Below are positions 2,257 to 62,127 of a stretch of DNA of 64,000 nucleotides, one piece after another. The position numbers and the translations under genes were made by a program. The DNA lies in contig DATHEF010000004.1 in the NCBI GenBank assembly GCA_035490435.1, forward strand, positions 216,044 through 280,043, given 5' to 3'. The DNA comes from Thermoanaerobaculia bacterium (lineage in GTDB: Bacteria > Acidobacteriota > Thermoanaerobaculia > Multivoradales > UBA5704). How positions within the stretch are numbered: the stretch's first letter is position 1; each line of letters opens with the position of its first letter. The notes under the pieces are model-generated. The model ran no database searches. It was not told the DNA's origin and was given only the letters and a program-made list of their open reading frames with translations.

Positions 2257-3291
2257 ATGCTAGGTTCCATGGTTCTGGATGTCGGTATCGGCTTGGTTCT
2301 GATCTATTTCCTGCTGAGCCTGATCTGCTCGACGATCAACGAGGGTATCTCCAATTTGTTCGGCCTTCGGGCCGCGTCCCTCAAGGAAGGGCTGGATAAC
2401 CTGCTCGGGTCCGAGCTGGCGCAAGGTATCTTCGATCATCACCTCGTCAAAGGTCTGGTGCAGCAGGATGCGCTGCCCTGGAAGCGCCGGCCCTCTTACA
2501 TTCCAACCCGGACCTTCGTCATGGCGGCGCTCCACTCGCTGAACGGCCAGAATTTTCCCGCCACGGTCGACGAAGTCCGAGTGGCGGTTCAGAATGTCAA
2601 GGATGAGAATGTCCGGCGAGCTCTGCTGGCACTGATCGACGACGCCCGAGGTGATTTCAGCAAGATGAAAGACAACCTCGGAGTCTGGTTCGATCACTCC
2701 ATGGATCGGGTCTCCGGCTGGTATCGCAGAAAGATTCAGAGCTACATCCTCATCATCGCCATCTTCATCAGCTTCGGGCTGGGGGTGGATACACTCGCGC
2801 TCGTAAAGTTCCTGCGGGCGGATTCGACGCTGAGGGAATCTCTGGTTGCAGTGGCGAAGGCCGAGGTCGAGAAGCCCGCCGCGCCAACAGTGACTGACGG
2901 TGCCGCTCCCAGTCCGGGCGCGCAACCGAACGCGGCCCAGAACCTCAAGAAGGATCTGGTGAATCTCGAGACGCTCCAGACGCAGTTTTTCAATCTCAAC
3001 ATCCCGCGCTACCCGCTTTATTACTTCAAGGACCGTGTGAAGGATTGGCAGGCCGGCCAGCCGCAAGGACAGGTCGCGACGGTCGCCGCCCGAACTCCAC
3101 CCTCGCCAGGTTTCGTGGCGGTCTTGTGGTTCTGGTTCTGGCAGCACTCCCTGGGCTTCTTCATCACTTCCGTAGCTCTTTCACTGGGCTCTCCATTCTG
3201 GTTCGATCTGCTCAACAAGCTTGTGAGCCTGCGCTCGACAGGCCAGAAGCCGAAACCAGAAGCCGCGGCGATCCAGACGGTCCAGGGATAG
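2257..3291 (+). CDS. hypothetical integral membrane protein (344 aa)
   Basis: N-terminal TM ([19 protein letters not shown]), central TM ([18 protein letters not shown]) and C-terminal Trp-rich TM ([23 protein letters not shown]). RBS aaggagg upstream. Lower GC (about 55%). Confidence 0.6.
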
Positions 3292-3323
3292 GGTGGGGCG
3301 GGCGGGAGATATACTCCCCGCTC

Positions 3324-5057
<1,734 letters not shown>

Positions 5058-5081
5058 AGCGAGGGAGGAACGTCGGAGGTT

Positions 5082-5169
5082 GAGGACGCGGAAGGCGCGA
5101 GGCATCTGGAGGGTTGGCGCCGCCGCGGCGGCGCCAACCCTCCAGATCCCTCGTACCTTCCGCGTCCTC
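5082..5169. repeat. 88-bp near-perfect palindrome (long hairpin or cruciform; possible bidirectional terminator)
   Basis: gaggacgcggaagg(c/t)(g/a)cgagg(c/g)atctggagggttggcgccgccgc is followed by its reverse complement, so both strands give near-identical spurious ORFs (MRTRK(A/V)RGIWRVGAAAAAPTLQ...). Confidence 0.85.
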
Positions 5170-5215
5170 AACCCCTACCGAACCGCACTACACCGGGGCG
5201 AAAAGACCGGAGCGT

Positions 5216-5367
5216 CCGTGGCCTGCGACCTCATCCTCTGTCTCCTTCTCCTGAAGGAGAAGGAGGACGTATCTGGGCCGGCTCCTCTGCGCTTCGGCAA
5301 TGTCGCTTCAGACAGGTCCCTCCTCTCCTTCAGGAGAGGAGGACAGGAGGTGAGGTCGCAGGCCACG
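5216..5367. repeat. REP-like palindromic element (GGCCTGCGACCTCAyCCTC...CTCCTGAAGGAGArGGAGG family), two inverted half-copies
   Basis: The left arm cgtggcctgcgacctcatcctctgtctccttctcctgaaggagaaggagg pairs with the right arm ...cctcctctccttcaggagaggaggacaggaggtgaggtcgcaggccacg. A third half-copy lies at 54585..54632. Confidence 0.8.
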
Positions 5368-5439
5368 GATGCCACGATCTCGGCTGATACTCTCAGATCC
5401 CGGTTCCACCGTCGTCCGAGCGATAGGCAGCGCTGGCCC

Positions 5440-5893
5440 TCCGGATCGCGCTTTCCGCCTTCCGTGTTTCCGCATGGGCCCACGGGCTCTGCGGATGCGC
5501 CTCACCGATCTCCGAGTCCGCTTACCCGATCGCCGTGTCTTCCCGCCCGATCTCCACGTGCGCCCACCGGAACTGCGGTCGCGCCCCCTGGATCTCTGTG
5601 TGCGCCCTCTGGTTCCGCGATTGCGCCGGCTGGTTCTCTGTGTGTGCCCCCTGGAACTGCGGTCGCGCGCAAGGGAAGGCCGTGCCGGCGTGACGACGGG
5701 CTGACTCCGCTTTCCAGAGGGCTGGTGCGTGGAAGCAGAGGGCGCCAACACGAGACCAGAGGGCGCGGTCTGCCCTCAGAAGCTATGGGACGCGGCTCCA
5801 GAGGGCGCAATCGCAGCTCCAGAGGGCACACACGGAAAAACCAGAGGGCACGGTCCACCGAGCAGAGGGCGCGACCGCATCAGCAGAGGGCGC
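5440..5893. repeat. complex intergenic repeat cluster: inverted arrays of short GCGCCCTCTGG / CCAGAGGGCGC motifs
   Basis: Left arm carries gcgccccctgg, gcgccctctgg and gtgccccctgg units. The right arm carries six cagagggcgc/cagagggcac units spaced 20-30 bp. The arms are imperfect reverse complements of each other over about 200 bp. Confidence 0.8.
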
Positions 5894-5897
5894 TACG

Positions 5898-6773
5898 CTA
5901 GCGTCCTTCGATCGGTACCGCGAACTGGTCGAGCTGAGTCAGATCGCGCCGGTAGGCGGTGACCGCCACGCGGTCCGGATAGACGTCGACGACGCAGAAG
6001 TGGTTCACCTTCTCGAAGACGTCGCCAGGAACCCCGAGCTCGGGGTGCTCGCCGTCGTAGAGCGGGGCGCCGCCGCCGCCGGTGACGACGTAGGTGATGC
6101 CGTCCCTCAGGGTGCGGTAGTAGATGTGGTCGTGCCCCTCGAAGACCAGGCGGACCCCGTATTTCCTGAACAGCGGATGGAGGATCGCCTGCAAGGCCAG
6201 GATTCCGCTCTCGTCGGCGTGGGGTCCGGTCGAGAAGATCGCCTTGTGGAAGAAGGGGACGATGAGCTTCCCCTCGGACCGCGCCCTGGCGAGGTCGGCT
6301 TCGAGCCAGCGCCCCTCCTCGCTCGCCGGGTCGAGCGGCTGCTGGGTGTCGACGGCGATGAAGTGGAGGTTCCCCTTCTCGAAGGAGTAGTAGAGCTTGT
6401 TGCCGGAGAGGAACGGCTGGGTCACCCGCTGCTCGTAGTAGCCGTGGGTGCCCATGTCGTGGTTGCCGCGGGCCGGGTAGTAGGGGATCTGCCGCCGCAT
6501 GTCGCCGGTGATCTCGTCGAAGATCCGCCATTCGTCCGCGGCGTCGCCATGGCGAACGAGGTCGCCGGTCTGCAGGACCAGCGCCGGCTGGAAGCTCATC
6601 ACTCCCTTGACGATCTCGCGGTGGATGTCGTGGTTGTCGCGGGTGTCGCCATACGCGGCGAAGCGGAGCAGGGCTCTCGCCGGCGCCGGCAAGGGGTTCT
6701 GAGCCTGGGGCGTCTGGGAGCAGGCGGAGACCAGCAGGGCGAGCAGGAAGGCGAAACAGGGGGTGGGTTTCAT
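5898..6773 (-). CDS. calcineurin-like metallophosphoesterase, secreted or lipoprotein
   Basis: MKPTPCFAFLLALLVSACSQ signal/lipobox, then GDTRDNH...GNHD...GHDH metallophosphatase motifs. Start trimmed from the 791-aa ORF-track call to the Met preceding the signal peptide. Confidence 0.8.
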   Translation of the reverse strand: MKPTPCFAFLLALLVSACSQTPQAQNPLPAPARALLRFAAYGDTRDNHDIHREIVKGVMSFQPALVLQTGDLVRHGDAADEWRIFDEITGDMRRQIPYYPARGNHDMGTHGYYEQRVTQPFLSGNKLYYSFEKGNLHFIAVDTQQPLDPASEEGRWLEADLARARSEGKLIVPFFHKAIFSTGPHADESGILALQAILHPLFRKYGVRLVFEGHDHIYYRTLRDGITYVVTGGGGAPLYDGEHPELGVPGDVFEKVNHFCVVDVYPDRVAVTAYRRDLTQLDQFAVPIEGR

Positions 6774-6845
6774 CGGAGTCTCCTTGGCGGGGTAGAATAG
6801 GGCAAAGCTTCGATCTGATCCACGCGCCCGAGGGAGGAGAATCCG

Positions 6846-8150
6846 ATGCGCCGCTCCGCCGCGTTCCGTTCCGTCGCCCTGGCGACTCTGCTGCTCTTCT
6901 CCGTCTCCTGCGTCTCGACGCGGCTGCCGCCGATCTCGAGCCAGGGCGGGGCTTTCGAGCCGCTGCACGACGAGCAGATCCTCTGGGACCAGTCCCGGGG
7001 GGAGGAGAGGAAGCTCCTCGAGGACATCCGGCTCTACAAGGATCCGGGCCTCGACGCCTATCTGGAGGAGGTGGTCGCCCGCCTCAACCCGCCCGGCATG
7101 GCCTCCAATGAGGCCGTGCGGTACCGGGTGCGAGTGATCGAGGACCCCACGCTCAACGCCTTCGCCTACCCGCACGGCTCGATCTATGTCCACACCGGGC
7201 TGCTCGCGCGTTTGGAGAGCGAGGACGAGCTGGCGACGGTGCTCGGCCATGAGATGACCCACGTCGAGAACCGCCACATGCTGCGCTATCAGCGGAGCGC
7301 CCACAACAAGGAGATCGGCCTCTCGATCGCCGCCGTCACCGCCTCGGTAATCCTCGCCGGTGTCGAGGGGGATGCCCTGAATGCCGGCGACTGGGGGAAA
7401 GCGGCGGCGATCGACCTCTTCGGCAATCTGCTCGTCGGGCTCGGGCTGGATCTCGCCTTCCAGGCGTCGGTCAACGGCTACGGCCGCGGTCTCGAGGAGG
7501 AGGCGGACCTGGGCGGCTTCACCAAGCTGGCCGCGGCGGGCTACGACCTCCAGGAGGCGCCGAAGGTCTACCAGGCGCTCCTCGACGACCAGGGGGAGCC
7601 CCACCGGGCCGAGGCGTTCTTCTTCGGCAGCCATCCGCGCCTGAGCGAGCGGATCGAGGTCACCCGGCGCTATCTGGGAGCGCACGCGGCGGTGGCGGGC
7701 GTGGTGATCGACCGCGCCGGCCGGCAGGAGGCCTTCGCCCGCCACCTCCGGCCGCTGGTGCGGGAGGACGCCCGGCTCAACATCGAGATGGGGCGGCTGA
7801 TGCTCGCCGAGGCCGAGCTCCGGAGGGTGCGGGAGTGGATGCCCGAAGACCCCGAGACCCACTTCCTCAAGGGGCGGCTGCGGCTCGCCCAGTCGGTCGC
7901 CGAGCAGAGCCCGGAGGCGCGGGCGCGGCTCCAGGGGGAGGCCGAGGACGCTTTCCGCAAGGCGATCGAGCTCGACGGCGACCGCCCGGCGCCGCACCGC
8001 GAGCTGGGGCTGCTGCTGCGCGAGCGCAAGGACTTCCGCGGCGCCTGCGTGCAGCTCCGGCGCTACGAGCAGCTCGATCCGCAGGCCGACGACGCCGGGC
8101 AGATCGAGGATTCGATCGCCGAGTTGGAGGGGTTCGGCGGCTGCGGGTAG
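6846..8150 (+). CDS. M48 family zinc metallopeptidase with C-terminal TPR-like region
   Basis: Signal peptide; HEMTH (HExxH) with downstream E; Peptidase_M48-type context (LGHEMTHVENRHM). Confidence 0.8.
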   Translation: MRRSAAFRSVALATLLLFSVSCVSTRLPPISSQGGAFEPLHDEQILWDQSRGEERKLLEDIRLYKDPGLDAYLEEVVARLNPPGMASNEAVRYRVRVIEDPTLNAFAYPHGSIYVHTGLLARLESEDELATVLGHEMTHVENRHMLRYQRSAHNKEIGLSIAAVTASVILAGVEGDALNAGDWGKAAAIDLFGNLLVGLGLDLAFQASVNGYGRGLEEEADLGGFTKLAAAGYDLQEAPKVYQALLDDQGEPHRAEAFFFGSHPRLSERIEVTRRYLGAHAAVAGVVIDRAGRQEAFARHLRPLVREDARLNIEMGRLMLAEAELRRVREWMPEDPETHFLKGRLRLAQSVAEQSPEARARLQGEAEDAFRKAIELDGDRPAPHRELGLLLRERKDFRGACVQLRRYEQLDPQADDAGQIEDSIAELEGFGGCG

Positions 8151-8196
8151 CCAGTCTGGAGTAGAGTCTCCAGGACCAACTCGTTCTGGAGGTTCC

Positions 8197-10263
8197 ATGC
8201 GCAAGCTGTTCATTTGTTTCGCGATGCTGACGGCGGCCCTCCCCGCGCTGGCGGCGGACCCGCATCCGTTCAACGTCCATGATCTGGTGACGATGCAGCG
8301 GATCTCGGACCCTCAGCCCTCGCCGCGGGGGGACCGGGTCGCCTTCGTCCTCCGCTCCACGGATCTCGACGCCAACCGGGGTCGCACCGATCTCTGGATC
8401 GTCAATGCCGACGGCGGCGGCCTCGCCCGGCTGACCACCGATCCGGCGTCGGACGACACCCCCCGCTGGGCGCCGGACGGCCAGAGCCTCTACTTCCTCT
8501 CCAGCCGCTCCAAGTCGAGCCAGGTCTGGAAGTTGCCGGTCGCTGGGGACACCGTGGGCGACCCCGTGCAGGTGACCCATCTCCCTCTCGACGTCGCGAA
8601 CCTCACCCTCTCGCCCGACGGCTCGCGGCTCGCCTTCAGTCTCGAGGTCTACGCCGACTGCCCGACGGTCGCCTGCACGAAAGAGCGGCTGGACCAGAAG
8701 GAGAAGGAGAAGTCCTCCGGCCAGCTCTTCCAGGGGGATGCCGGCTTCTTCCGCCACTGGGACGTCTGGTCCTCGGGGCTGCGCAACCATATTTTCACCC
8801 TGCCGGCCTCTGGCGAGGGCGATCCGGTCGACCTCTCGCGCGGCATGAACGCCGACGCCCCCTCGCGCCCCTTTGGCGGCTCCGAGGAGTTCACCTTCTC
8901 GCCCGACGGCCGCACGTTGGTCTTCACCGCCCGCCTCGGCGGCCGCGAGGAGCCGTGGTCGACCAACTTCGACCTCTACAGCGTGCCGGCGGACGGCTCG
9001 CAGGCGCCCCGGAACCTGACGCAGGCCAACCTCGCCTGGGACACCCAGCCGGTCTTCTCGCCGGACGGCAAGACCCTGGCCTACCTCGCAATGTCCCGCG
9101 CGGGCTTCGAGGCCGACCGCTTCCGCATCCGGCTGCGCGACCTCGCCACCGGCCGCGAGCGGGTGCTCGCGGAGGCCTGGGACCGCTCGCCGGCCGGGGT
9201 CTTCTTCTCGGCGGACGGCCGCACTCTCTATGCCTCGGCCGGTGACGTGGGGCAGACGCCGCTCTTCGCCATCGACGTCGCGACCGGCAAGGTGACCAAG
9301 CTGGTGTCCCAGGGGCACGTCCATGATCCGAAGCTCGCCGGCGACCGCATCGTCTACGGCCTCGATACCCTGATCTCGCCGGTGGAGCTGTACACGGTGG
9401 GGCGCGACGGCACGGGGGTGTCCCAGCTCACCCACGTCAACCAGGAGGCGCTCGCCGCCATCCGCATGGGGGAGCCGGAGCAGTTCTCCTTCAAGGGGGC
9501 CAACGGCGATACGGTCTGGGGGTGGGTGACCAAGCCGGTCGGCTTCCAGGCGGGCAGGAAGTACCCGCTGGCCTTCCTCATCCACGGCGGCCCCCAGGGA
9601 TCGTTCAGCAACGAGTTCCACTACCGCTGGAACCCGCAGCCCTACGCGGGGGCGGGGTACGCGGTGATCACCATCGACTTCCACGGCTCGACCGGCTACG
9701 GCCAGGCGTTCACCGACGCCATCACCCGGGACTGGGGGGGCAAGCCGCTGGTCGACCTTCAGAAGGGGCTCGCCGCCGCCCTCCAGCGCTACCCCTGGAT
9801 CGACGGCACGCGGGCGTGCGCTCTCGGCGCCTCCTACGGCGGCTTCATGATCAACTGGATCCAGGGCAACTGGCCCAACGCCTTCAAGTGCCTGGTCGAC
9901 CATGACGGCACCTTCGATCAGCGGATGATGTATTACGGCACCGAGGAGCTCTGGTTCCCGGAGTGGGAGATGGGCGGCACCTACTGGCAGCACCCGCAGC
10001 TCTACGAGAAGAACAACCCGGTGAATTTCGTCGACCGCTGGAAGACCCCGATGCTGGTCGTCCACAGCGCCCTCGACTACCGCATCCCGGTCACCCAGGG
10101 GATCGCCGCCTTCAACGTCCTCCAGCGCAAGGGGATCGCCAGCCAGTTCCTCTACTTTCCCGACGAGAACCACTGGATCCTCAAGCCGGCCAACAGCATC
10201 CTCTGGCACGACACCGTGCTGACCTGGCTCGACCGCTGGCTGGGGCCCGGGGGAAGCAAGTAA
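8197..10263 (+). CDS. S9 family serine peptidase (prolyl oligopeptidase / acylaminoacyl-peptidase-like) with N-terminal TolB-like beta-propeller
   Basis: Signal peptide MRKLFICFAMLTAALPALA; propeller repeats (SPDG...); GASYGGFM nucleophile elbow (GxSxGG); D and H of the catalytic triad lie in the C-terminal alpha/beta hydrolase fold. Confidence 0.85.
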   Translation: MRKLFICFAMLTAALPALAADPHPFNVHDLVTMQRISDPQPSPRGDRVAFVLRSTDLDANRGRTDLWIVNADGGGLARLTTDPASDDTPRWAPDGQSLYFLSSRSKSSQVWKLPVAGDTVGDPVQVTHLPLDVANLTLSPDGSRLAFSLEVYADCPTVACTKERLDQKEKEKSSGQLFQGDAGFFRHWDVWSSGLRNHIFTLPASGEGDPVDLSRGMNADAPSRPFGGSEEFTFSPDGRTLVFTARLGGREEPWSTNFDLYSVPADGSQAPRNLTQANLAWDTQPVFSPDGKTLAYLAMSRAGFEADRFRIRLRDLATGRERVLAEAWDRSPAGVFFSADGRTLYASAGDVGQTPLFAIDVATGKVTKLVSQGHVHDPKLAGDRIVYGLDTLISPVELYTVGRDGTGVSQLTHVNQEALAAIRMGEPEQFSFKGANGDTVWGWVTKPVGFQAGRKYPLAFLIHGGPQGSFSNEFHYRWNPQPYAGAGYAVITIDFHGSTGYGQAFTDAITRDWGGKPLVDLQKGLAAALQRYPWIDGTRACALGASYGGFMINWIQGNWPNAFKCLVDHDGTFDQRMMYYGTEELWFPEWEMGGTYWQHPQLYEKNNPVNFVDRWKTPMLVVHSALDYRIPVTQGIAAFNVLQRKGIASQFLYFPDENHWILKPANSILWHDTVLTWLDRWLGPGGSK

Positions 10264-10289
10264 ACGATTTTTTGTTCCTTTTGAGCTCT

Positions 10290-10336
10290 GAGGGCGGCCC
10301 GCGGGCCGCCCTCAACGTTTGCAGGTTTTTTTGTTG
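10290..10336 (+). terminator. putative rho-independent terminator of the S9 peptidase gene
   Basis: GC hairpin gagggcggcccgcgggccgccctc followed by a T-rich run (gtttgcaggtttttttgttg). Confidence 0.5.
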
Positions 10337-10525
10337 AGCATTGGGGATAGTGATCCGCAAACCCCCGAAAAACGGGCTCTCGAAAAAAAGTTCGGGATTT
10401 TTGTCCCGGAAAACCCCTCAGCGGAAACGAAGGTATTAGAGGCGATATGAACAGCCGTCCCGTTCACTCGACGTGCAGGGGAGGGTCGACCCATCGCCGG
10501 CTTCACCGAAGGAGGAGGATGAGCC

Positions 10526-11956
10526 ATGTTTCCGACGACCACCATGCCCATGCCCGGCGCCTTGCGACTGAGGGCCCTGCACCCCCTGATCGAGGGGGAC
10601 GGCTCCTGCAGCCTGATCTACGACCTGGAGCGCGCGGCGGTGGTGGAGGTGCCCGAGGACCTGCAGTTCCACGTCGCCCCGGCGCTGGAGACCGGGGATC
10701 TCGACGAGGCGCTGCTCGGCTGGCTCGTCAACGAGGACCTGCTGACCAGCGAGGGGGGCGCGGGCTGGAGCGTGACCGCCGGTGCCGTCCAGCTCCCCGA
10801 GGGGGGGTGGTGGAGCCTGGGGGCGATCTACCGGATCGACGACGAGCTCCACGTCCGCATCGACCAGGCGCGCGAGGACGCCGCGCTGGAGGTGGTGGGG
10901 TTCGTGTTCAAGCAGGGCTTCGGCGCCAGCCGGGTCAAGCTGCACCTGAACTGGGGGGGCGCCTTCCCGGGGACGGCGCTGCTCGAGCGCATCGTCGTCG
11001 AGTCCTCCCGCCTGGCCGCGCTGCTGGGGCAGGAGATCGCCTTCGAGCTGACGCTCGCCGCCCGCGAGGTGACCCCCGTCCGCGCGGCATTCCTCGCCGG
11101 CTACGGTTTCCAGGTGCGGCTGCTCTGCGGCAGCTACCCGGCTCCCTACGCCGGCTTCTACGCCGATCTCCGCGACCGGGATGGGGACAATAATGGCGGG
11201 ACGTGGGAGGCGGAGGCGCCGGTGCGCCTGCTGCACGAGGCCCTGAAGGGGCGGCTGACCGTCCACTGCGTGCTCGACCGCGGCCGTCTCCTCGACCTCT
11301 GGGAATGGGCCAAGCGGACCGGCCTCCGCCACCTGGACGCGACGGTGCTCGAGGACGCCGCGTTCGGCGACGGCGCGCCGCGCCCCGGCCGCCTGCGCGA
11401 GGTCCGCAACGACCTGCTGTCGGTCTGCGACGAGATGGCCGACGAGCTCGGCGGCCAGCGCCTGCCGGTCGAGTTCAAGCCGCTGACCCGGATCGTCGAC
11501 CGCCTGATGCGTAGCGAGCCGCTCGGCCAGGCCTACGGCGAGCGCGGCAGCTTCGCCAGCAGTTTCGCCGGGATGATGATGCCGATGGCCGACGCCTGCC
11601 CGCGCTCCTTCTTCGACAGCCTCGACCTGCGCTCGCTGCCGGACCTCCCGGACGGGCTGGGGGAGGAGCCGCGGGGGGATCTGGAGATGGAGACCTCCTG
11701 TCTCGGGTGCTGGGCCCGGCACGCGTGCGGTCACAGCACCTACGTGACCTCCCCCCAGGACGACGACGCGCGGGGAGCCGCGGAGGACCGCTGCCCGCTC
11801 TGGCGGACCGAGGTCGAGGTGGCGCTCCGCTTCTACCACCGCCTCGCCCACATGGACCCCATCCAGGTCCGCCAGTTCTTCGATCAATCCCTCCGCGAGC
11901 CGGCCCCGCCGCTCGGCCGCCGCGAGGACCTCGGACACCTGAGGATGCCGTTCTGA
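10526..11956 (+). CDS. hypothetical protein with C-terminal CxxCx5C...C cysteine cluster (SPASM/twitch-like), lacking a radical-SAM CxxxCxxC motif
   Basis: Strong RBS ggaggagga; C-terminal SCLGCWARHACGHSTY...EDRCPLW; no CxxxCxxC anywhere in the N-terminal half. Composition is protein-like, whereas the overlapping ORF-track calls are R/A/G-rich. Confidence 0.65.
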   Translation: MFPTTTMPMPGALRLRALHPLIEGDGSCSLIYDLERAAVVEVPEDLQFHVAPALETGDLDEALLGWLVNEDLLTSEGGAGWSVTAGAVQLPEGGWWSLGAIYRIDDELHVRIDQAREDAALEVVGFVFKQGFGASRVKLHLNWGGAFPGTALLERIVVESSRLAALLGQEIAFELTLAAREVTPVRAAFLAGYGFQVRLLCGSYPAPYAGFYADLRDRDGDNNGGTWEAEAPVRLLHEALKGRLTVHCVLDRGRLLDLWEWAKRTGLRHLDATVLEDAAFGDGAPRPGRLREVRNDLLSVCDEMADELGGQRLPVEFKPLTRIVDRLMRSEPLGQAYGERGSFASSFAGMMMPMADACPRSFFDSLDLRSLPDLPDGLGEEPRGDLEMETSCLGCWARHACGHSTYVTSPQDDDARGAAEDRCPLWRTEVEVALRFYHRLAHMDPIQVRQFFDQSLREPAPPLGRREDLGHLRMPF

Positions 11957-12054
11957 GCCCCGCTCCGGCATCTCTCGCCCCATCTCCCCTCGGGTAGAGG
12001 CGTCCCCCTCCGGGTCGCCTCTGCCCACCCTTTTCTGATTTACTCCGGTCCATC

Positions 12055-12654
12055 GTGCCGTCTAACGCCTGGCTCCGTTTCCGCTATTCGTTCTGGGCTC
12101 CCCACTACGACCGGGTGACCAAGTTCCCGGATGAGCGGCGGCGCTCGATCGAGCTGCTCGACCTGCGCCCGGGGGAGCGGCTGGTGGTGATCGGCTGCGG
12201 CACCGGCGCCGACCTCCCGTTGATCCCTTTGGGGATCGAGGTGCTGGCGGTGGATCTCACTCCGGCGATGATCCGCCAGGCGATGGCTCACGCGCGGCCC
12301 GGGATCGAGTTCCGGGTGATGGACGGCATGGCGCTCGACCTGCCGGACGGCTCGTTCGACGCGGCGATCCTCCACATGGTGCTGGAGGTGATCCCGGATC
12401 CGGCCCGCTGTCTCGCCGAGGCCGCGCGGGTGCTCCGCGTGGGGGGGCGGCTGGCCGTCTTCGACAAGTTCCTCCCCGAGGGGGAGCGCCCCGGCCCGCT
12501 CCGCCGCGCCGGGCTCGCCCTGCTCGACTTCGTCTTCACCAGCACCAACCGGCGGATGGGGGAGATCCTCGCCCGCTCCGGGGCCCCCTTCGCGGTCGAG
12601 CGCGACGACCCTTCCGTCGGCTCCTACCGCCACCTGATCCTGCGCCGCGTGTAG
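12055..12654 (+). CDS. class I SAM-dependent methyltransferase
   Basis: VVIGCGTGADL (motif I GxGxG); Methyltransf_11/25-like; GTG start inferred from the ORF track. Confidence 0.75.
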   Translation: MPSNAWLRFRYSFWAPHYDRVTKFPDERRRSIELLDLRPGERLVVIGCGTGADLPLIPLGIEVLAVDLTPAMIRQAMAHARPGIEFRVMDGMALDLPDGSFDAAILHMVLEVIPDPARCLAEAARVLRVGGRLAVFDKFLPEGERPGPLRRAGLALLDFVFTSTNRRMGEILARSGAPFAVERDDPSVGSYRHLILRRV

Positions 12655-12679
12655 GCGCTTCGCGTGTAGGATTACCCCC

Positions 12680-13066
12680 ATGGAAAACGACGCGCGGTTC
12701 CGGGGAGCGGGTGGGACGCCGGGGGGGCTGGGAGAGTTCCTGATCGGGCTCGCCATGGCCGCCGGCGGCGCCTACCTGCTGACCCAGCAGGTCACGGTGA
12801 CGAGCGGCTACTGGAACGTCTGGGGGCACAACGCCTTCGGCCTGACGCTGCTCCCCCTCCTCTTCGGCGTCGGCCTGCTGTTCTTCAACGGCCGCTCGGT
12901 GCTCGGCTGGCTGCTGCTGGTCGCCGGCGCGGCCATCCTCCTCGCCGGCATCCTGATGAACCTCCAGATCTACTTCCAGAGCACCAGCCTGTTCAACACC
13001 CTGATCATGCTGGTCCTGCTCTTCGGAGGCCTCGGGCTGATCGCCCGCTCGCTGCGATCGCATTGA
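12680..13066 (+). CDS. small integral membrane protein (128 aa, 3-4 TM)
   Basis: Hydrophobic segments LIGLAMAAGGAYLL, LTLLPLLFGVGLLFF, WLLLVAGAAILLAGILM, LIMLVLLFGGLGLI; 25 bp downstream of the methyltransferase gene. Confidence 0.55.
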   Translation: MENDARFRGAGGTPGGLGEFLIGLAMAAGGAYLLTQQVTVTSGYWNVWGHNAFGLTLLPLLFGVGLLFFNGRSVLGWLLLVAGAAILLAGILMNLQIYFQSTSLFNTLIMLVLLFGGLGLIARSLRSH

Positions 13067-13094
13067 TACCGGCCGGCTAGAGACTTGTGGCTTT

Positions 13095-14348
13095 TTAAAG
13101 CCGCCAGAGCAGCATGGCCCCGGCGGCCAGGATGAGGGAGGCCAGCGTCACCGGCAGACCCACCCGCAGGTGCTCGCGGAAGCCGAAGCGGACGCCGAGT
13201 CTCCCCGCCTGCTCGGCCACGATCAGGTTGGCGATGCTCCCCACCAGCACCGCGTTGCCGGCGAAGGTGCTGGCGAGCGCCATGGCGTAACCGGTCGCCG
13301 GCTGCCGCCCGACGAACGGCAGCAGCAGCATGACGGCCGGCACGTTGCCCACCCCCAGCGACAGCAGCGACACCGCCACCACCAGCGCCGCCGGATGCGC
13401 GAGGTCGGCGCCCGCCGCGGCGAGGGCGCCGCGGGCGGCCTCCGTCCAGCCCGAGACCTCGAAACCGCGCCCGACCACGAACAGGCCGACGAAGAGGGCG
13501 AGGAGATGCCAGTCCACCTGGGCCAGCATGTCGCGTGTCCGCATCCGCCGGCTGGTCAGCACGAAGCCGGCGATCCCGAGGGCGGTCAGCGGCGCCGGGA
13601 CAGGGGAGAGGAAGAGGGCGATGGCCGCCGCGGTCAGCAGGATCGCCTTGGCCGCCTGCCAGCGGTGGAGCGGGATGCGCTCTGTTTCGGCAGCGGCTTC
13701 GGCGGCGGCGAGGTCGCCGGGGACGGCTTTGACAATCCTGCCCTCCGGAGCCCGGAGCCGCGGCGCTACGATCAGGTAGAGCACGCCGAGCGAGAGGACG
13801 ACCGGCGCGGCGCAGGCCAGCATGAAGGGGAGGAAGGGGAGGTGGAGGCTCTGCGCGATCAGGATGTTCTGCGGGTTGCCGATCGGGGTCAGGGCGCTGC
13901 CGAGGTTGGCGGCGCAGGCGAGGGCCAGCAGGTAGGGTAGGGGAGGGCGGCGCGAGGCGAGCAGGGCGCCGGCGAGCAGCGGGGTCAGCGCGAAGCAGAT
14001 CACGTCGTTGGTGAGCACGGCCGCGAGCAGGGCGGTGACCACGATCGTCCCCAGCAGCAGCCGGCGCGGGTCCGCCACCTGGGCGAGCCGGCCGCCGATC
14101 GCTGAATAGAGCCCCGATTGCCGGTACTGGGCCGAGAGCAGCATCATGCCGAAGAGCACGGCGAGAGTCGGCGCGTCCACCGCCTGCTTGGCCTGCTCGA
14201 CGGTGATCGCGCCGGTGGCGAGGAAGGCCACGGCCCCCAGCAGGGCGAACCCCGTGCGGTCGAGCGCCAGCCCCGGCACGCGTCCGAGGGCGAGCCCGGC
14301 GTAGGTGAGGACGAACAGGACCAGTGGGAGCAGCGGGGGGTGGCCCAT
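13095..14348 (-). CDS. ArsB/NhaD-superfamily anion permease (CitMHS/SLC13-like)
   Basis: 417 aa, about 10-12 TM, duplicated halves, typical ...GNPQNILIAQS... motif. Confidence 0.75.
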   Translation of the reverse strand: MGHPPLLPLVLFVLTYAGLALGRVPGLALDRTGFALLGAVAFLATGAITVEQAKQAVDAPTLAVLFGMMLLSAQYRQSGLYSAIGGRLAQVADPRRLLLGTIVVTALLAAVLTNDVICFALTPLLAGALLASRRPPLPYLLALACAANLGSALTPIGNPQNILIAQSLHLPFLPFMLACAAPVVLSLGVLYLIVAPRLRAPEGRIVKAVPGDLAAAEAAAETERIPLHRWQAAKAILLTAAAIALFLSPVPAPLTALGIAGFVLTSRRMRTRDMLAQVDWHLLALFVGLFVVGRGFEVSGWTEAARGALAAAGADLAHPAALVVAVSLLSLGVGNVPAVMLLLPFVGRQPATGYAMALASTFAGNAVLVGSIANLIVAEQAGRLGVRFGFREHLRVGLPVTLASLILAAGAMLLWRL

Positions 14349-14437
14349 GCGGCCGGGATCATCTCATGAGATGATGAATCGTTGCCGGCGGGCGCCGGTT
14401 CGACGAAGCCGTCACAACAAGGATCTCGGGACGTACC

Positions 14438-15295
14438 ATGCTTCGCTTTGTTGTAGCTTTGCAGGCTGAGGCCCACCCGCTGGTGGGCCGGTTCGGAATG
14501 GCGGCCGTGAGCGAGGCGCCGTTCCCGGTCTATCGGAGCGAGGAGGCCTGGCTGATCGTCTCCGGTCACGGCAAGGCGGCGTCGGCCGCGGCCACCGCCT
14601 ATCTTCACCTGATGGCCGGCGGCGCCCTGGGCCGCGCCTGGCTCAACGTCGGCCTCGGCGGCCACAGCCAGCGGAAGCTCGGCGAGGGGGTGCTGGCGCA
14701 CAAGATCTCCGACGCGGCGAGCGGCGCCTCCTGGTACCCCCAACTGGTCATCGACAGCCCGGGCCCGACCGTCCCCGTCCTCTCCGTCGAGCGGGTGGAG
14801 GAGGAGTACGCGCCCCCCTGGGTCTACGAGTCCGAGGCGGCCGGCTTCTTCCCCACCGCCTGCCGGTTCTCGGTCGCCGAGCTGGTGCACGTCTACAAGG
14901 TGATCTCCGACAATCCGGACGCCACCCTCTCGCGGCGCATGTCGAGCCGGGCCGTCGAGGCGGCGATCGCCAGCAACCTGGACCGGATCGAGGCCTTCGC
15001 CCGCGGTCTCACGGATCTCGCGCGGGAATTGGAGGCGCTGGCCGCCGAGCCGCCGGGATACCCCGAGGCCCTGGAGCGCTGGTCCTTCACCGCCGCGCAG
15101 CAGCTCCGGCTGCGGCGGCTGCTGCGGCGGCTGGCGGCGCTCGATCCCGCGAGCTCGCGCGATCCGGCCTACCTGGAATCCCTGTTCGACGGCGCCCGCG
15201 CCGAGCGGGAGGTGCTGCGCTCGCTGGAAGCGCGGCTCGCCGTCATCCCCATCCGACTGCCCCCGCCAGGAGCCGCCGCCGATGATCTACGTTGA
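14438..15295 (+). CDS. purine nucleoside phosphorylase / MTA-SAH nucleosidase family protein (PNP_UDP_1-like) with C-terminal helical extension
   Basis: N-terminus MLRFVVALQAEAHPL...WLIVSGHGKAASAAATAYL matches the phosphorylase-I fold signature. The 3' end overlaps the next gene by 14 nt. Confidence 0.6.
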   Translation: MLRFVVALQAEAHPLVGRFGMAAVSEAPFPVYRSEEAWLIVSGHGKAASAAATAYLHLMAGGALGRAWLNVGLGGHSQRKLGEGVLAHKISDAASGASWYPQLVIDSPGPTVPVLSVERVEEEYAPPWVYESEAAGFFPTACRFSVAELVHVYKVISDNPDATLSRRMSSRAVEAAIASNLDRIEAFARGLTDLARELEALAAEPPGYPEALERWSFTAAQQLRLRRLLRRLAALDPASSRDPAYLESLFDGARAEREVLRSLEARLAVIPIRLPPPGAAADDLR

Positions 15296-16322
15296 GGAAG
15301 AGATCCTGGCGCATCCGCGCACGCTGCAGATCCAGAGCCGCTTCCCGGACGCCGAGGTCGTCCCCTGCTCGCGGTACAGCGAGATCTTCAACCGGCGGGC
15401 TCAGCACTTCCGGCTGCAGAAGCGCCGGCCGTCGCTGATCCTGGCGCGCAAGCACCGCAGCTTCGTGCAGGAGGCGCCGGCGGGGTTCGGCGTCAAGGGA
15501 GCGCGGAGCTTCACCTTCTCCCACATGCACAACTGCATCTACGACTGCCGGTACTGCTTCCTCCAGGGGATGTACCGGTCGGCCCACTACGTCGTCTTCA
15601 TCAACTACGAGGACTACCAGTGGGCGATCGAGGAGCGGCTGCGGTCGCTCCCCAACGGCTCTGCCTGGTTCTTCTCCGGTTACGACTGCGACAGCCTGGC
15701 GCTCGAGCCGGTGACCCGCTTCGCGGCGAGCTTCGTGCCCTTTTTCGCCCGCTTCCCGGCCGCGTTCCTCGAGCTGCGCACCAAGAGCACGCAGATCAAG
15801 TCGCTGCTCGACATGGAGGCGCCGCCGAACGTGATCGTGGCGTTCAGCTTCACGCCCGCGGAGGTGGCTGCGTCGGTGGAGCACCTGACCCCCTCGGTCG
15901 ACCGCCGTATCCGGGCAATGAAGAAGCTCCAGGAGCGCGGCTGGCGGCTGGGTCTCCGCTTCGACCCGCTGATCTACGACGAGGGCTTTCGCGAGCAGTA
16001 CCGGCGCCTGTACGAGCAGGTCTTTGGCGCCGTTCGCGTCGAGAGCCTCCACTCGGTGAGCCTCGGCCCGTTCCACCTGCCGGGGGGGCTGTTCAGGAAC
16101 ATGGCGCGGCTCTACCCGGAGAGCCCGCTGTTCGCCGCTCCCCTCGACGAGACGGGCGGCCAGGTGGGCTACCGGCGGGACCTGGAGGAGGAGATGATGG
16201 GGTTCTGCCGTGAGGAGCTGCTGCGCCACATTCCGCCGGAGATCTTCTGCCCGGGGTTGAGCGCCCTGCCGGCGGCCCATGCCGCGGAGGCGGCTTCGCC
16301 GCTCGGCGAAGCCGCGATGTAG
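15282..16322 (+). CDS. radical SAM protein, spore photoproduct lyase (SplB) family
   Basis: CIYDCRYCFLQG (CxxxCxxC) at the canonical SPL position; MIYVEEEILAHPRT N-terminus and overall SplB-like layout. Confidence 0.75.
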   Translation: MIYVEEEILAHPRTLQIQSRFPDAEVVPCSRYSEIFNRRAQHFRLQKRRPSLILARKHRSFVQEAPAGFGVKGARSFTFSHMHNCIYDCRYCFLQGMYRSAHYVVFINYEDYQWAIEERLRSLPNGSAWFFSGYDCDSLALEPVTRFAASFVPFFARFPAAFLELRTKSTQIKSLLDMEAPPNVIVAFSFTPAEVAASVEHLTPSVDRRIRAMKKLQERGWRLGLRFDPLIYDEGFREQYRRLYEQVFGAVRVESLHSVSLGPFHLPGGLFRNMARLYPESPLFAAPLDETGGQVGYRRDLEEEMMGFCREELLRHIPPEIFCPGLSALPAAHAAEAASPLGEAAM

Positions 16323-18449: not shown

Positions 18450-19727
18450 TTAACGAATGTCGTAGCCGGTTAGTTCTACGTACCCGTGCCCTTGCACGGG
18501 CTTGCCGCGATGGGTCCCCGTGACCGCGACCGCCCCTTCCCAGTAGCGGAAAGAGACGTCGAGCTCCTGATCGGCGAGCAGCGGGCGGACGTCGAGGTCC
18601 AGGTCTTCGCCCGGGACGCGCAAGTGCCACCGTGCGGGGTACCCGGCGCCGCTTCGCGGGCTGCGCCACTCGCCGGAGCCCGCGATCTGGAAATCGGCGA
18701 GCGCGAGCGGCCGGGAGCCGCCGTCCGGTCCGACCGCGGTGCCGCTGCTCGCCGGATCGGCGGTGCCGTCCCGCCGGCGCAGCCGGTAGAGCATGAGGTC
18801 CGAGCCGTCCGCGAGCTGAAGGGAGAACCAGTCCCAGCCCACCTGATCCTTGCCGAGCGAGCTGGTGCTCCATTCACGGTCCATCCAGGAGGCGCCGGTC
18901 ACCGCGAAGGGCTCCCCGCCGATGCGCACCGTGCCCGCGGTCGGCATGCGGGTGAGGGAGTAGTAATAGGAGGCGTTGCCCGGCTCGGCGCTCTTGCGGC
19001 TCAAGCCCCGCTCCCCCTGGAGCACGGGAGGCTTCCCCGCCCGCAGGAGAAGATCGATCGCCACCTCCCCCTCCGCCGCGCGCAGACGCACGGGGAAGAC
19101 CGGAGCCCCTTCGGCCGTCCAGTCCTTCACCCAGACCCGGAAGGGCGTGCCCTGCGCGCCCGCGAGCCCGACGGCGTCCCGGCTCCAGCGCTCGAAGGAG
19201 TGGAACTTCTTCCCGTCGACGTCGCTCACCGTGAAGTGGGCGAGCCAAGCCTGCCGGGTGGCCCAGGCCGACGCCCGCGCGGGCATCTCCGGCGCCAGGG
19301 CCGAGCGGAAGAAGGTGAGCTGGAAGCCGAAGCGCCGTCCCTCGGCCGTCGCGAGGTTCCCCGTGTAGTACCACCACTCGGTGCGGAACTCAGGATGCGG
19401 CCCATGATCGGACGGAAAGTGGAACTCCCGCGGCGCCAGTGCCCTGGCGTACCCCCGGTCGTCGGCGCTGCGCAGGGCGCCGGCGACGGAGAGGGAGGCG
19501 CGGGGTTGGGAGGGCGGTTCTTGACAGGCGAAGAGGCAGAGGCTGGCGAGGAGGAGGATTGCTGATCGGGTCCGGAGCCGCCAAAGCCCGGGATTGAAAT
19601 CCCGGGCTACCCACGGTCGTCCTCCGGACTTCAAATATTTTTTGGGGAAGTCCCGGAAGGGACAGTCGTCGGTAGCCCGGGATTTCAATCCCGGGCTTTG
19701 AGGTCGCAACCCACCCACAGTCCACAT
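18450..19727 (-). CDS. CrtC/AttH-like lipocalin-fold protein (hydroxyneurosporene synthase family), probable lipoprotein; start uncertain
   Basis: FHFPSDHGPHPEFRTEWWYYTGNL hallmark; LLLASLCLFAC lipobox. The ORF-track Met at 19727 lies inside a MITE-like inverted-repeat element, so the true start is probably an internal or non-ATG codon. Confidence 0.7.
   Translation of the reverse strand: MWTVGGLRPQSPGLKSRATDDCPFRDFPKKYLKSGGRPWVARDFNPGLWRLRTRSAILLLASLCLFACQEPPSQPRASLSVAGALRSADDRGYARALAPREFHFPSDHGPHPEFRTEWWYYTGNLATAEGRRFGFQLTFFRSALAPEMPARASAWATRQAWLAHFTVSDVDGKKFHSFERWSRDAVGLAGAQGTPFRVWVKDWTAEGAPVFPVRLRAAEGEVAIDLLLRAGKPPVLQGERGLSRKSAEPGNASYYYSLTRMPTAGTVRIGGEPFAVTGASWMDREWSTSSLGKDQVGWDWFSLQLADGSDLMLYRLRRRDGTADPASSGTAVGPDGGSRPLALADFQIAGSGEWRSPRSGAGYPARWHLRVPGEDLDLDVRPLLADQELDVSFRYWEGAVAVTGTHRGKPVQGHGYVELTGYDIR
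19585..19697. mobile_element. MITE-like nested inverted-repeat element
   Basis: Terminal copies agcccgggattgaaatcccgggct and agcccgggatttcaatcccgggct, each itself a hairpin; inner inverted repeat tcctccggacttc / gaagtcccggaagggac around an AT-rich centre. Confidence 0.6.
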
Positions 19728-54567: not shown

Positions 54568-54584
54568 GGGACGTCCGCGGCCTG

Positions 54585-54632
54585 CGACCTCACCCTCGGT
54601 CCCTCTCCTGAAGGAGAGGGAGGGCCTGTCAG
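54585..54632. repeat. REP-like element, third copy of the GGCCTGCGACCTCAcCCTC...CTCCTGAAGGAGAGGGAGG family
   Basis: Same core as 5216..5367. Confidence 0.7.
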
Positions 54633-54839
54633 AACCGGTGATGCCCGTAGGGTGTGCTGTCCTTTTCCTCCCCCCGTTCCGGGTGGAGGAAAAAATTCGG
54701 GCGTCCGGGATGATCCCCACACTTCCTCAGGACGAGATTCAATCCAGGTCCGCCCCAAGCGCGCTACAATCAACTTGGCCAAGATCTTGCTGCACGTTGT
54801 CCCCCGAAACGTGCCGGCCGGATCGAGCGCGAAGCCACC

Positions 54840-62105: not shown

Positions 62106-62127
62106 GGTGGCAATCGCTCTGCGATCC

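Follow-up and report, generated by a model that had tools for sequence, protein, structure and literature searches.

Several kinds of repeated DNA described in bacteria are close to the locus analysed here. The REP, REPIN and BIME sequences of proteobacteria, which are associated with RAYTs, are extragenic hairpin units that occur as singlets or inverted doublets, often just behind stop codons and with a GTAG tetranucleotide 5' of the palindrome, and BIMEs alternate palindromic units with defined linkers. A genome with RAYT-mobilised REPs has tens to hundreds of them scattered outside genes, and they flank the RAYT gene, which encodes an IS200/IS605-like Y1 transposase. The NIMEs of Neisseria (dRS3/RS) form intergenic mosaics of short repeat families at sites of strain-variable gene content, and in them 20-bp inverted repeats flank units of 50-150 bp. 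Plasmid iterons and ParR-type centromeres (parC) consist of direct repeats of ~20 bp with a conserved core, phased at two helical turns and arranged in two blocks around a centre; iteron origins adjoin a rep gene, an AT-rich unwinding element and DnaA boxes, and a centromere adjoins the partition operon with which it is retained. CRISPR arrays combine repeats of 23-50 bp with unique spacers of similar length and usually lie near cas genes. BrickBuilt, a minisatellite-bearing MITE of Porphyromonas gingivalis with 19 copies per genome, holds one intergenic, spacer-less tandem array of ~22-23-nt units with a leader and a tail, set within repeat DNA whose ends are inverted repeats; all its copies are extragenic, and what it does is uncertain (PMC4596501).

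The locus lies in a 64,000-nucleotide stretch of DNA (hereafter the window) from an uncultivated soil bacterium of the Thermoanaerobaculia (Acidobacteriota). An 840-bp spacer separates two convergent genes, one for a TPP enzyme (stop 5057) and one for a metallophosphoesterase (Metallophos, stop 5898), and contains three unrelated repeat modules, namely a palindrome (a), a hairpin doublet (b) and a pair of facing arrays (c) (Table 1). An earlier note made from the sequence had described this spacer of about 840 bp as dense in palindromes and repeats. The description was borne out, and all three of the features it listed were found, with small corrections given below. The reading that we favour, and hold to be fairly probable, is that the spacer represents a deletion scar rich in repeats, and a rearrangement hotspot, at an unstable junction of two convergent core genes from which two other genes have been lost.

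Table 1. Features of the spacer, its flanking genes and related repeats elsewhere in the window (window coordinates).
Feature	Position	Strand	Basis
TPP-enzyme gene, acetolactate-synthase-like	3045..5057	+	Pfam TPP_enzyme_N/M/C
Element (a), 96-bp palindrome, 48-nt arms, zero loop	5078..5173	.	inverted-repeat pair, 94% complementary
3'-end remnant of lost TIR-WD40-Roc-DUF4365 gene, including stop codon	5174..5207	-	alignment to L132
Element (b), 171-bp REPIN-like doublet, units inverted	5208..5378	.	inverted-repeat pair; 96% identity to L132 7461-7631
Left array c-L, ~11-12 units of 21 bp, core GCGCCCYCTGG	5434..5685	+	register alignment, lag-21 autocorrelation
Non-repeat centre separating the facing arrays	5686..5710	.	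array register
Right array c-R, 9 units of 21 bp, same family	5711..5897	-	register alignment, autocorrelation
Metallophosphoesterase gene, 291 aa	5898..6773	-	gene call in L001, Pfam Metallophos
Element (d), second REPIN-like doublet	19586..19696	.	GGTAG-CCCGGGAT-TTCA-ATCCCGGG twice, inverted; outside 840-bp spacer
Singlet copy of (b) unit	54571..54645	+	83-87% identity to window (b) units

The immediate neighbours of the spacer encode the TPP enzyme, the metallophosphoesterase, and M48 and S9 peptidases. The real start of the TPP-enzyme gene is probably downstream of 3045; its orthologues in L132, L138, L140 and L261 (loci compared with the window are given L numbers) are 575-579 aa long as called, and a 344-aa ORF at 2257-3291 has no Pfam match. 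The C-terminus of the metallophosphoesterase is intact in an alignment with eight homologues. The GC content is 0.65-0.70 throughout the spacer region.

The same junction takes very different forms in relatives. In L140, L264/265 and L266 the Metallophos and TPP genes share 9 bp, in L138/139 a gap of 23 bp separates them, and the spacer region is missing from the orthologous junction in L138-L140 and L264-L266. In L132-134, which share 91-96% DNA identity with the window, the order is Metallophos, TspO, (b), a TIR-WD40-Roc-DUF4365 gene, a long version of (a) and TPP, such that the TIR-WD40-Roc-DUF4365 gene is bracketed by (b) and by an (a) of ~320 bp. A minus-strand gene, probably TspO (assigned without direct comparison), starts 2 nt past the Metallophos stop in L260 (92% aa identity), and the junction of L261 holds TspO plus a TIR fragment. 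The arrays (c) are absent from this junction in the close relatives L132 and L260 and in the distant L138, L140, L264 and L266. The rearranged L262 has an IS110 gene upstream, and no transposase adjoins the cargo in L132, L135 or L261. The window itself keeps a trace of the lost cargo. Positions 5116-5210 align to L132 11171-11080 (84% over 96 nt), an alignment that takes in the final ~30 nt of the DUF4365 gene and also its TAG stop (11111-11113); about 34 nt of the 3' end of this gene are kept. The length polymorphism across strains that the earlier note had proposed to look for is real, the same junction ranging from a 9-bp overlap to >4.5 kb. All of its breakpoints coincide with repeat edges. 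Because the length varies and the breakpoints fall at the edges of (a) and (b), the comparison of relatives also supports the idea of a recombination hotspot. The locus is a clean natural example of gene loss whose breakpoints are marked by palindromic modules, at a site with immune-like cargo in sister strains.

Element (a) begins 20 nt past the TPP-enzyme stop, and its arms (5078-5125 and 5126-5173) abut. The palindrome had been noted as 88 bp at 5082-5169; it exists and is slightly larger, at 96 bp. In L132 the same two arms (87-89% identity) are separated by 229 nt that contain three nested inverted repeats, and the whole is a foldback of ~320 bp with inverted ends. We read the window form, from this alignment, as a collapsed version of the foldback known from close relatives, in which deletion of the centre of a long palindrome would have brought the outer 48-nt arms together. 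Outer arms of a long palindrome are the product expected from an SbcCD-type centre deletion. The window fits this expectation, since a ~95%-identical strain has the 320-bp foldback of which nothing but the outer arms is left here, although the mechanism is deduced here from two end states only. The locus would thereby add an example of how a long palindrome can shrink to the outer arms alone. A second copy of (a) was sought without success in the window, in the related loci retrieved and in viral contigs; the viral scans for (a) and (b) yielded nothing but one coding match due to chance. No target-site duplication was recognised at the edges of either element.

Element (b) consists of two units, bL (~5204-5275) and bR (~5309-5380), with arms that are 79% complementary and 33 nt in between. 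Each unit holds its own perfect 10-bp hairpin with the loop TGAA/TTCA. The stem of this hairpin is 100% paired in all seven units compared, and three of its base pairs show compensatory change with both sides altered. The double half-site element of the earlier note and its recurrence near 54585-54632 are both present, as the doublet and as the third, singlet unit of Table 1, which begins 4-7 nt past the stop of an ORF ending at 54567. Together with these three units in the 64-kb window, the copies sampled include one diverged unit in L261 (17447-17516), which begins within ~10 nt of a stop codon. Over its 171 nt (b) is 96% identical to the L132 copy, yet both flanks differ, and both outer edges of (b) are breakpoints relative to L132. 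A variant of the locus, L131, breaks at the inner edge of unit bL (window-equivalent 5276). On these alignments (b) appears to be a discrete module of ~171-180 bp that behaves like an exchangeable REPIN-type unit; its mobility is suggested rather than demonstrated, because no target-site duplications or transposase were identified.

A second family, element (d), reinforces the resemblance to REPINs. Its unit has an 8-bp stem (CCCGGGAT/ATCCCGGG) with the GTAG tetranucleotide directly 5' of the palindrome (GGTAG-CCCGGG...), and doublets occur in three genomes, in the window, in L135 and in L261 (5465-5577). The sister strain L135 carries the (d) doublet at the exact site of (b): compared with L132, the flanks are 97% and 87% identical, yet the two strains have differing cassettes of 181-182 bp at this one site. 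Two different REP-like doublets thus swap at a single site, which makes a further example of such exchange. The window copy of (d) fills a convergent spacer, and in L132 and L261 (b) and (d) sit between divergent gene starts, not behind stops. Like REP and REPIN sequences, both (b) and (d) are extragenic, are built on short hairpin-forming palindromes of 10 and 8 bp, occur as inverted doublets and, for (b), as a singlet, often just behind stops, and belong to different families at the same site in sister strains. They differ in that GTAG is absent from (b) and that only a few copies are present in ~200 kb of sampled lineage DNA. The proposal of a REP/BIME-like cluster therefore fits (b), with its inverted hairpin doublet, its singlet and the L261 unit, and fails for the arrays (c), which are direct 21-bp tandem repeats rather than alternating palindromic units with defined linkers. 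Element (b) alone alternates, and with just two units. MITEs occur in several copies, with terminal inverted repeats and target-site duplications. The long (a) of L132 and (b) are foldbacks with inverted ends, with no target duplication recognised and, for (a), no second copy.

The arrays c-L and c-R are arranged head-to-head. Of the 21 bp of a unit, 11 form a conserved core, GCGCCCTCTGG, and the other 10 a variable spacer. Eight of the nine slots of c-R have a recognisable core (CCAGAGGGCGC on the + strand) and one is degenerate; one c-R unit is 22 bp long, and the 21-bp phase is otherwise kept with almost no indels. The array finishes 4 nt before the metallophosphoesterase stop codon. In c-L, five well-formed units (5560-5664) follow degenerate ones (5434-5559) that decay leftwards. 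The earlier note had reported an inverted array of short copies at ~5440-5890, which is present, with a spacing of 20-30 bp, which is not: the period is exactly 21 bp. Autocorrelation at lag 21 is 0.60 in the left array and 0.50 in the right one, compared with 0.29 +/- 0.035 in shuffles. The exact motif CAGAGGGCGC occurs six times in the region and not once in the other 63 kb of the window, and with at most one mismatch, 9 of its 19 matches in the window fall within 313 bp (binomial 1.4e-16). No single sites of the core were found elsewhere in the 64-kb window. Mismatches are far fewer in the core (14/143) than in the spacer (59/130, p = 1.7e-11). Since a purely neutral slippage array should decay evenly, this suggests that something recognises or regenerates the core. 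c-L also has a 42-bp super-period, and its unit pairs 5560/5644 and 5581/5623 are identical at 18 of 21 positions each; these 42/84-bp higher-order copies point to growth by slippage or unequal exchange. Two origins of the arrays were rejected. The arms are not a simple recent inverted duplication, as they show no mirrored unit order, and they are not a decayed TspO or TIR gene, for which blastx gave only E >= 0.12 with the match on the wrong strand.

Similar periods recur in the lineage with other sequences. An array of eleven 21-bp units lies between the Metallophos and TspO genes in L135/L136, with a 5+4+5 dyad (CCGCA-NNNN-TGCGG) in the units of L135, and 21/41-bp arrays of unrelated units occur in L132 (5839-5927), L261 (9742-9877) and L262 (11331-12016). 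Since the arrays of L135 and L136, from two samples, do not differ, such arrays are not hypervariable on short time scales. A distant Thermoanaerobaculia MAG, L110, has facing arrays between convergent genes with a related core, CGAGAGGGCGC / GCGTCTCCCAGG. This locus was the sole useful one among the matches listed in two scans, of genome contigs for three AGAGGGC at 20-22-bp spacing and of metagenomes for three AGAGGGCRC; the other matches listed came from many phyla and were unrelated minisatellites, 7-/11-bp repeats or repeats in coding sequence. When viral contigs were scanned for a pattern of two array units, nine loci were found: eight were dismissed as coding coincidences (PEGA-type repeats) or as otherwise not comparable, and the ninth (L002) carries a 21-bp array that is unrelated. 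The segment upstream of Metallophos in L132, examined for a clean-ended insertion carrying an array, is a complex replacement. That arrays with unrelated sequences keep a strict period of two helical turns across the lineage is a hint of a constraint that they have in common.

Like BrickBuilt, the arrays (c) are intergenic tandem units embedded in repeat DNA (PMC4596501); they differ from it in being two and facing, in having a conserved core and a variable half-unit, in lacking a defined leader, tail or terminal repeats, and in being known with this core from a single locus. The spacer resembles NIMEs as an intergenic mosaic of short repeat families at a site of strain-variable gene content, but the sequences are unrelated, the unit layout is unlike theirs, and the window locus has no evidence of phage integration. 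The arrays are not CRISPRs either: the whole unit is 21 bp (11-bp core and 10-bp variable part), the two arrays are opposed, and no cas genes are present among the annotated neighbours (window about 2.3-16 kb).

Under the deletion-scar reading, we infer the order and mechanism of events as follows. The ancestral-type junction would have held TspO and the immune-like TIR-WD40-Roc-DUF4365 gene, both of which were lost in the lineage of the window. Three unrelated kinds of repeat DNA, (a), (b) and (c), would have remained. The arrays would be two facing minisatellites of one family, grown by slippage or unequal exchange, and their head-to-head layout probably arose by inverted duplication or a template switch. 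Any present-day role of the region would be incidental, although the hairpins, which follow immediately on the two stop codons, could terminate or stabilise the converging transcripts. Only the conserved core and the strict two-turn phase, in a layout that recurs in a distant relative, give the locus a wider interest.

These two properties are also what speaks for a different view of the arrays, namely that they are a phased protein-binding platform (iteron-, parC-centromere- or insulator-like), which we consider unlikely. A putative protein would recognise the 11-bp core every two helical turns on one helix face, with the two arrays meeting at the centre, and would shape the local organisation of the DNA or obstruct transcription or replication between the two genes. 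The orientation of both arrays towards a short centre, the near absence of indels, the same architecture in L110 and the dyad in the L135 units agree with this, and the ~20-bp direct repeats with a conserved core in two blocks around a centre are indeed shared with iterons and parC. Against it, the arrays are chromosomal, convergent rather than co-oriented, and missing at the same junction in the six relatives named above; the other arrays of the lineage use unrelated unit sequences; and the core has no single-site occurrences in the window. The phase fits a plasmid iteron origin, but the called neighbours (annotated ~2.3-16 kb) include no rep or par genes, the GC-rich spacer has neither an AT-rich unwinding region nor DnaA boxes, and a distant-mode plasmid blastn gave no match. 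That facing pairs of 21-bp arrays are a functional element throughout the Thermoanaerobaculia, a putative platform for a DNA-binding protein that marks or insulates spacers, is decidedly doubtful; if it held, the arrays of the window and of L110 would both belong to a single class not described before, rather than being accidents, and arrays that proved common and protein-bound would represent a novel type of intergenic element in bacteria. The arrays could also be the multi-site ends of a degenerate Tn7/Mu-type transposon with a deleted interior, since in such elements both ends hold several inverted ~22-bp binding sites for the transposase. The sites of ~21 bp here do form two inverted sets that face each other, at a locus with variable, defence-like cargo in relatives. 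Yet 9-11 contiguous sites per end are far above known elements, the only transposase near the cargo is the IS110 upstream in L262, the arrays do not bracket the cargo in relatives, and no matching termini or target duplications are visible, because the outer left units are degenerate; this origin is very unlikely.

At the RNA level, the long hairpins (stems of 48 bp in (a) and ~70 bp in (b), and the pairing of the left and right arms in (c)) might be selected as U-tract-independent bidirectional terminators, 3'-end stabilisers or RNase III substrates, which we regard as improbable. The region folds far better than dinucleotide shuffles (z = -14.7 on the + strand and -16.7 on the - strand), but the strands fold equally well, as is true for any inverted repeat. 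The positions of (a), c-R, the (b) singlet and the L261 unit close to stops, the compensatory changes in the (b) hairpin and the place of (d) in a convergent spacer fit such a role; the location of (b) and (d) between divergent starts in L132 and L261 does not, relatives with overlapping genes need no spacer, and a consensus scan found no terminator-like or promoter-like sites. An Rfam scan, which the earlier note had called for, gave no match to Rfam 15 at the gathering threshold over the whole window; at a permissive threshold only generic miRNA-precursor hairpin models appeared, far below their cut-offs and on both strands. The suggested structured RNA thus finds no support beyond the trivial folding of inverted repeats, with no Rfam family and the region missing in several relatives. 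The mirror-image spurious ORFs reported on both strands are there, and a 273-aa ORF (5080-5901), called by a public gene caller, stays open across the whole region with a period that equals seven codons. There is next to no chance that it or the mirror ORFs are a real gene for an arginine/glycine-rich heptad-repeat protein. The ORF has no Pfam domain and crosses two palindromic elements, the 22-bp unit shifts the frame, conservation follows an 11-nt block and then a variable 10-nt block rather than a codon pattern, and the region is missing from orthologous loci. Its sole match among 5.8 billion proteins is a translation of element (b), read through behind an unrelated gene, and was rejected as an independent copy since it comes from a variant of the same locus (L131). 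Because the 273-aa "hypothetical protein" is almost certainly spurious, annotation should mask the region as repeat DNA. We see no sign of a new gene or a known RNA in the region, which is most likely leftover DNA. That short reads of a tandem repeat were wrongly assembled into an inverted structure is highly improbable as well, even though these arrays are seen in this assembly alone and their period is below the k-mer size. The units are individually distinct and therefore assemble uniquely, L001 (ENA ERZ27267999) is 100% identical over 11.5 kb, though possibly not independent of the assembly of the window, comparable arrays are present in the unrelated assemblies L110, L135/L136 and L262, and three further metagenomes contain (a) and (b) as well.

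The 840-bp spacer lies between two convergent genes on a metagenome-derived contig, one for a TPP (thiamine-pyrophosphate) enzyme (+ strand, stop 5057) and one for a 291-aa metallophosphoesterase (Metallophos, − strand). It is filled by three separate repeat modules: a palindrome (a), an inverted doublet of hairpin units bL and bR (b), and two arrays of 21-bp units in opposite orientation, pointing at each other (c). Exact CAGAGGGCGC occurs six times in the spacer versus zero in the other 63 kb of the window, and 9 of the 19 window-wide core matches with at most one mismatch fall inside 313 bp (binomial 1.4e-16). The lag-21 autocorrelation of the arrays is 0.60 and 0.50, compared with 0.29 ± 0.035 in shuffles, and the folding z-scores of the two strands are −14.7 and −16.7. 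The feature is real and non-random, and with all modules located, these statistics confirm the earlier note's description of a repeat-filled spacer, except that the repeats, given there as spaced by 20–30 bp, follow a strict 21-bp period. An assembly error is an unlikely source of this arrangement. Over window 4573-16077, the ENA contig L001 matches at 100% identity.

Coordinates of the repeat modules and related features (window positions unless a contig is named; L-numbers are contigs of relatives or matches)
Feature	Position	Strand or sequence	Remarks
Element (a), palindrome arms	5078-5125 and 5126-5173		94% complementary, loop absent
DUF4365 gene remnant	5174-5207		~34 nt of 3' end and stop codon; abuts distal arm of (a)
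Element (b), two ~72-nt units in inverted orientation	5204-5275 and 5309-5380		
Left array (c)	5434-5685	core GCGCCCYCTGG on + strand	five good units, decaying leftwards
Right array (c)	5711-5897	+ strand reading CCAGAGGGCGC	9 register slots, 8 with recognisable core
Metallophosphoesterase stop codon	5898-5900	−	
Third (b) unit	54571-54645		few nt after stop of ORF ending at 54567
Element (d)	19586-19696		fills spacer between ORF ends 19565 and 19731
Element (d)	L135 5564-5678		
Element (d)	L261 5465-5577		between divergently transcribed genes
21- or 41-bp array	L132 5839-5927		unit sequence unrelated
21- or 41-bp array	L261 9742-9877		unit sequence unrelated
41-bp (2 × ~20.5) repeats, ~700 bp	L262 11331-12016		unrelated units; downstream of orthologous metallophosphoesterase
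Two abutting 21-bp arrays	L110 2272-2812 (JADGNY010000016.1)	inverted cores	×15.5 at 93%, ×9.7 at 85%

The named metallophosphoesterase homologues come from Thermoanaerobaculia or Acidobacteriota MAGs, some on 7–8.8-Mb contigs. The strain comparison for length polymorphism proposed in the earlier note showed that the junction varies among relatives. The Metallophos and TPP genes overlap by 9 bp in L140, L264/265 and L266 (78–80% aa identity) and are 23 bp apart in L138/139 (82% aa). The flanking genes of L132-134 share 91–96% DNA identity with the window, and the order there is Metallophos, TspO(−), (b), a TIR-WD40-Roc-DUF4365 gene, (a) and TPP. In L135/136 (93–95% DNA identity), Metallophos is followed after 165 bp by an 11-unit 21-bp array, TspO(−) and the full TIR-WD40-Roc-DUF4365 gene. 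A minus-strand gene, probably TspO, starts 2 nt past the Metallophos stop in L260 (92% aa), and L261 (75% aa) carries TspO and a TIR fragment at the junction. The C-terminal 634 aa of the L132 immune-like gene are 90% identical to the L135 protein, and the 'non-coding' 1.6 kb at L132 7694-9200 reads in one frame as an uncalled TIR-WD40 N-terminal half (69% identical to the L135 protein), so the gene is either miscalled or a young pseudogene.

In these alignments, the junction breakpoints fall at repeat edges. Element (a) of L132-134 has 46–62-nt arms with 229 nt between them, holding three further nested inverted repeats; relative to the L132 form, the window has lost everything between the outer arms, exactly. 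Element (b) of L132-134 is 96% identical to the window copy over 171 nt, and the window-L132 similarity ends at both outer (b) edges, 5208 and 5378. L131, which represents a further version of this locus, keeps the flank on the TspO side but breaks at the inner bL edge (window-equivalent 5276), where a gene of 56% GC that has no Pfam domains takes over. The divergent TspO/TIR spacer is common to L135 and L132 (flanks 97% and 87% identical), and at the same position it holds different 181–182-bp cassettes, (b) in L132 and (d) in L135. Element (d), with two inverted units (GGTAG-CCCGGGAT-TTCA-ATCCCGGG) about 90 bp apart, occurs in three related genomes, each time at a different locus. Given this recurrence and the cassette exchange, the lineage has at least two dispersed REP/REPIN-like doublet families, and (b) behaves as one such discrete module; its mobility, suggested by end states, is putative. 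Within the doublet, each (b) unit has a separate perfect hairpin of 10 bp, closed by a TGAA/TTCA loop. Seven units keep this hairpin fully paired, and three of its pairs are altered on both sides by changes traceable to one sub-lineage. The TGAA loop common to both families may reflect a common recognition feature. Both work like REPs and REPINs, (d) even with the GTAG hallmark of REPs, which makes them candidate REP/REPIN families, judged by sequence layout.

The right array ends 4 nt short of the metallophosphoesterase stop codon. In the left arm, units separated by 84 bp or by 42 bp agree at 18 of 21 positions, which indicates that the arm grew through duplication of 42/84-bp blocks. A unit-by-unit comparison gave no mirrored unit order between the arms, ruling out a fresh inverted duplication. 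Mismatches affect 14 of 143 core positions versus 59 of 130 in the spacer part of the unit (p = 1.7e-11), a bias that is not predicted by a neutral slippage model. The core and its neighbours (window 5581-5591 and 5880-5894), for example CAGCAGAGGGCGCT or CCAGGGGGCGC on the other strand, coincide with the vertebrate CTCF consensus; in a bacterial contig this is a coincidence, though motif scanners would flag it.

The reading with the best support, which we consider probable, takes the spacer for a repeat-rich deletion scar where the junction is unstable, composed of a collapsed long palindrome (a), a REPIN-like module (b) and a pair of facing minisatellites (c). The tight Metallophos-TPP pair would be the widespread state, to which a sub-clade would have added TspO and the immune-like gene, both lost afterwards in the window's lineage; the deletion and inversion mechanisms are those suggested by end states. 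If the spacer has a function at all, for example to stop or stabilise the transcripts that converge on it, that role would be incidental. One of the two main rival readings, a selected RNA-level terminator or stabiliser, strikes us as improbable. The consensus scan detected no consensus promoter or intrinsic terminator in the spacer, and the earlier suggestion of a structured RNA found no Rfam family at the gathering threshold, below which only generic hairpin (miRNA-precursor) models matched, on both strands. Degenerate transposon ends are likewise an unlikely origin.

A real repeat protein is also unlikely. The 273-aa ORF at 5080-5901 (L001 508-1329), which the public assembly annotates as a gene, has no Pfam domain, and its only match in 5.8 billion proteins is 38 residues translated from (b). 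In the arrays, a conserved block of 11 nt alternates with a variable one of 10 nt, and a single unit measures 22 bp, which is not a coding pattern. The ORF is almost certainly spurious; it is presumably already in protein databases as a hypothetical protein. The other main rival, a putative phased protein-binding platform, is equally improbable: core conservation and the two-turn phase of the arrays favour it, whereas their absence in sister strains, the lack of partner genes and the unrelated cores elsewhere speak against it. The spacer is largely explained if it is repeat DNA that marks a variable locus in decay; the one point left over is why the facing arrays keep a conserved core and a two-turn phase. 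In form, the arrays resemble plasmid iterons or parC and the BrickBuilt minisatellite-MITE of Porphyromonas gingivalis (PMC4596501). They lack the context by which iterons, centromeres, CRISPR and BIMEs are defined.

The L135 array shares its orientation with the window array, and both flank one and the same gene on one side. In a hand alignment of unassessed significance, its best unit agrees with window unit 5644, which sits on the left rather than the gene-adjacent arm, at 17 of 21 positions (3 gap positions), so common descent with rapid turnover is suggested only tentatively. The L135 and L136 arrays are identical across two samples and thus not hypervariable in the short term. In the Thermoanaerobaculia MAG contig L110, a CPXCG zinc-finger gene and an SDR (short-chain dehydrogenase) gene convergent to it enclose arrays with cores GCGTCTCCCAGG and CGAGAGGGCGC, which face each other in the order of the window arrays; the search pattern forced AGAGGGC at 20–22-bp spacing, leaving the extended core, second inverted array and gene context as the independent features.

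Several further repeats were observed. The 41-bp repeat sub-units of L262 (an 8.78-Mb genome, ERZ25039542 contig_167) alternate in orientation, and its metallophosphoesterase gene is closely preceded by an IS110-family transposase. Window 61880-62110 is an intergenic cluster of 107-bp period (×1.9) with an inner 21-bp unit GGTACAGGGGTTCCCCAAGAA and many GGGGnnCCCC palindromes, unrelated in sequence to the spacer repeats. The 138-bp tandem repeat at window 39289-41014 (×12.5, 80% matches) probably codes for a repeat of 46 residues that looks TPR-like. L171 (Ga0066831_10051138, 1118 bp, 50% GC), from an unrelated organism, consists entirely of the 21-bp unit CCAAGAGGGCACTTCCTATGA, with about 12 copies in one direction followed by about 40 in the other, and is possibly a satellite or an assembly chimera. 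Tandem AGAGGGC/AGAAGGC heptamers occur in L106, L120, L058, L063, L108 and L122 (Vicinamibacterales, Thermoanaerobaculia and Acidobacteriota MAGs), putatively intergenic by eye and adjoining what seem to be the starts or ends of genes. Heptamer repeats known from cyanobacteria and Xanthomonas are similar to them, and they may form a separate acidobacterial repeat class.
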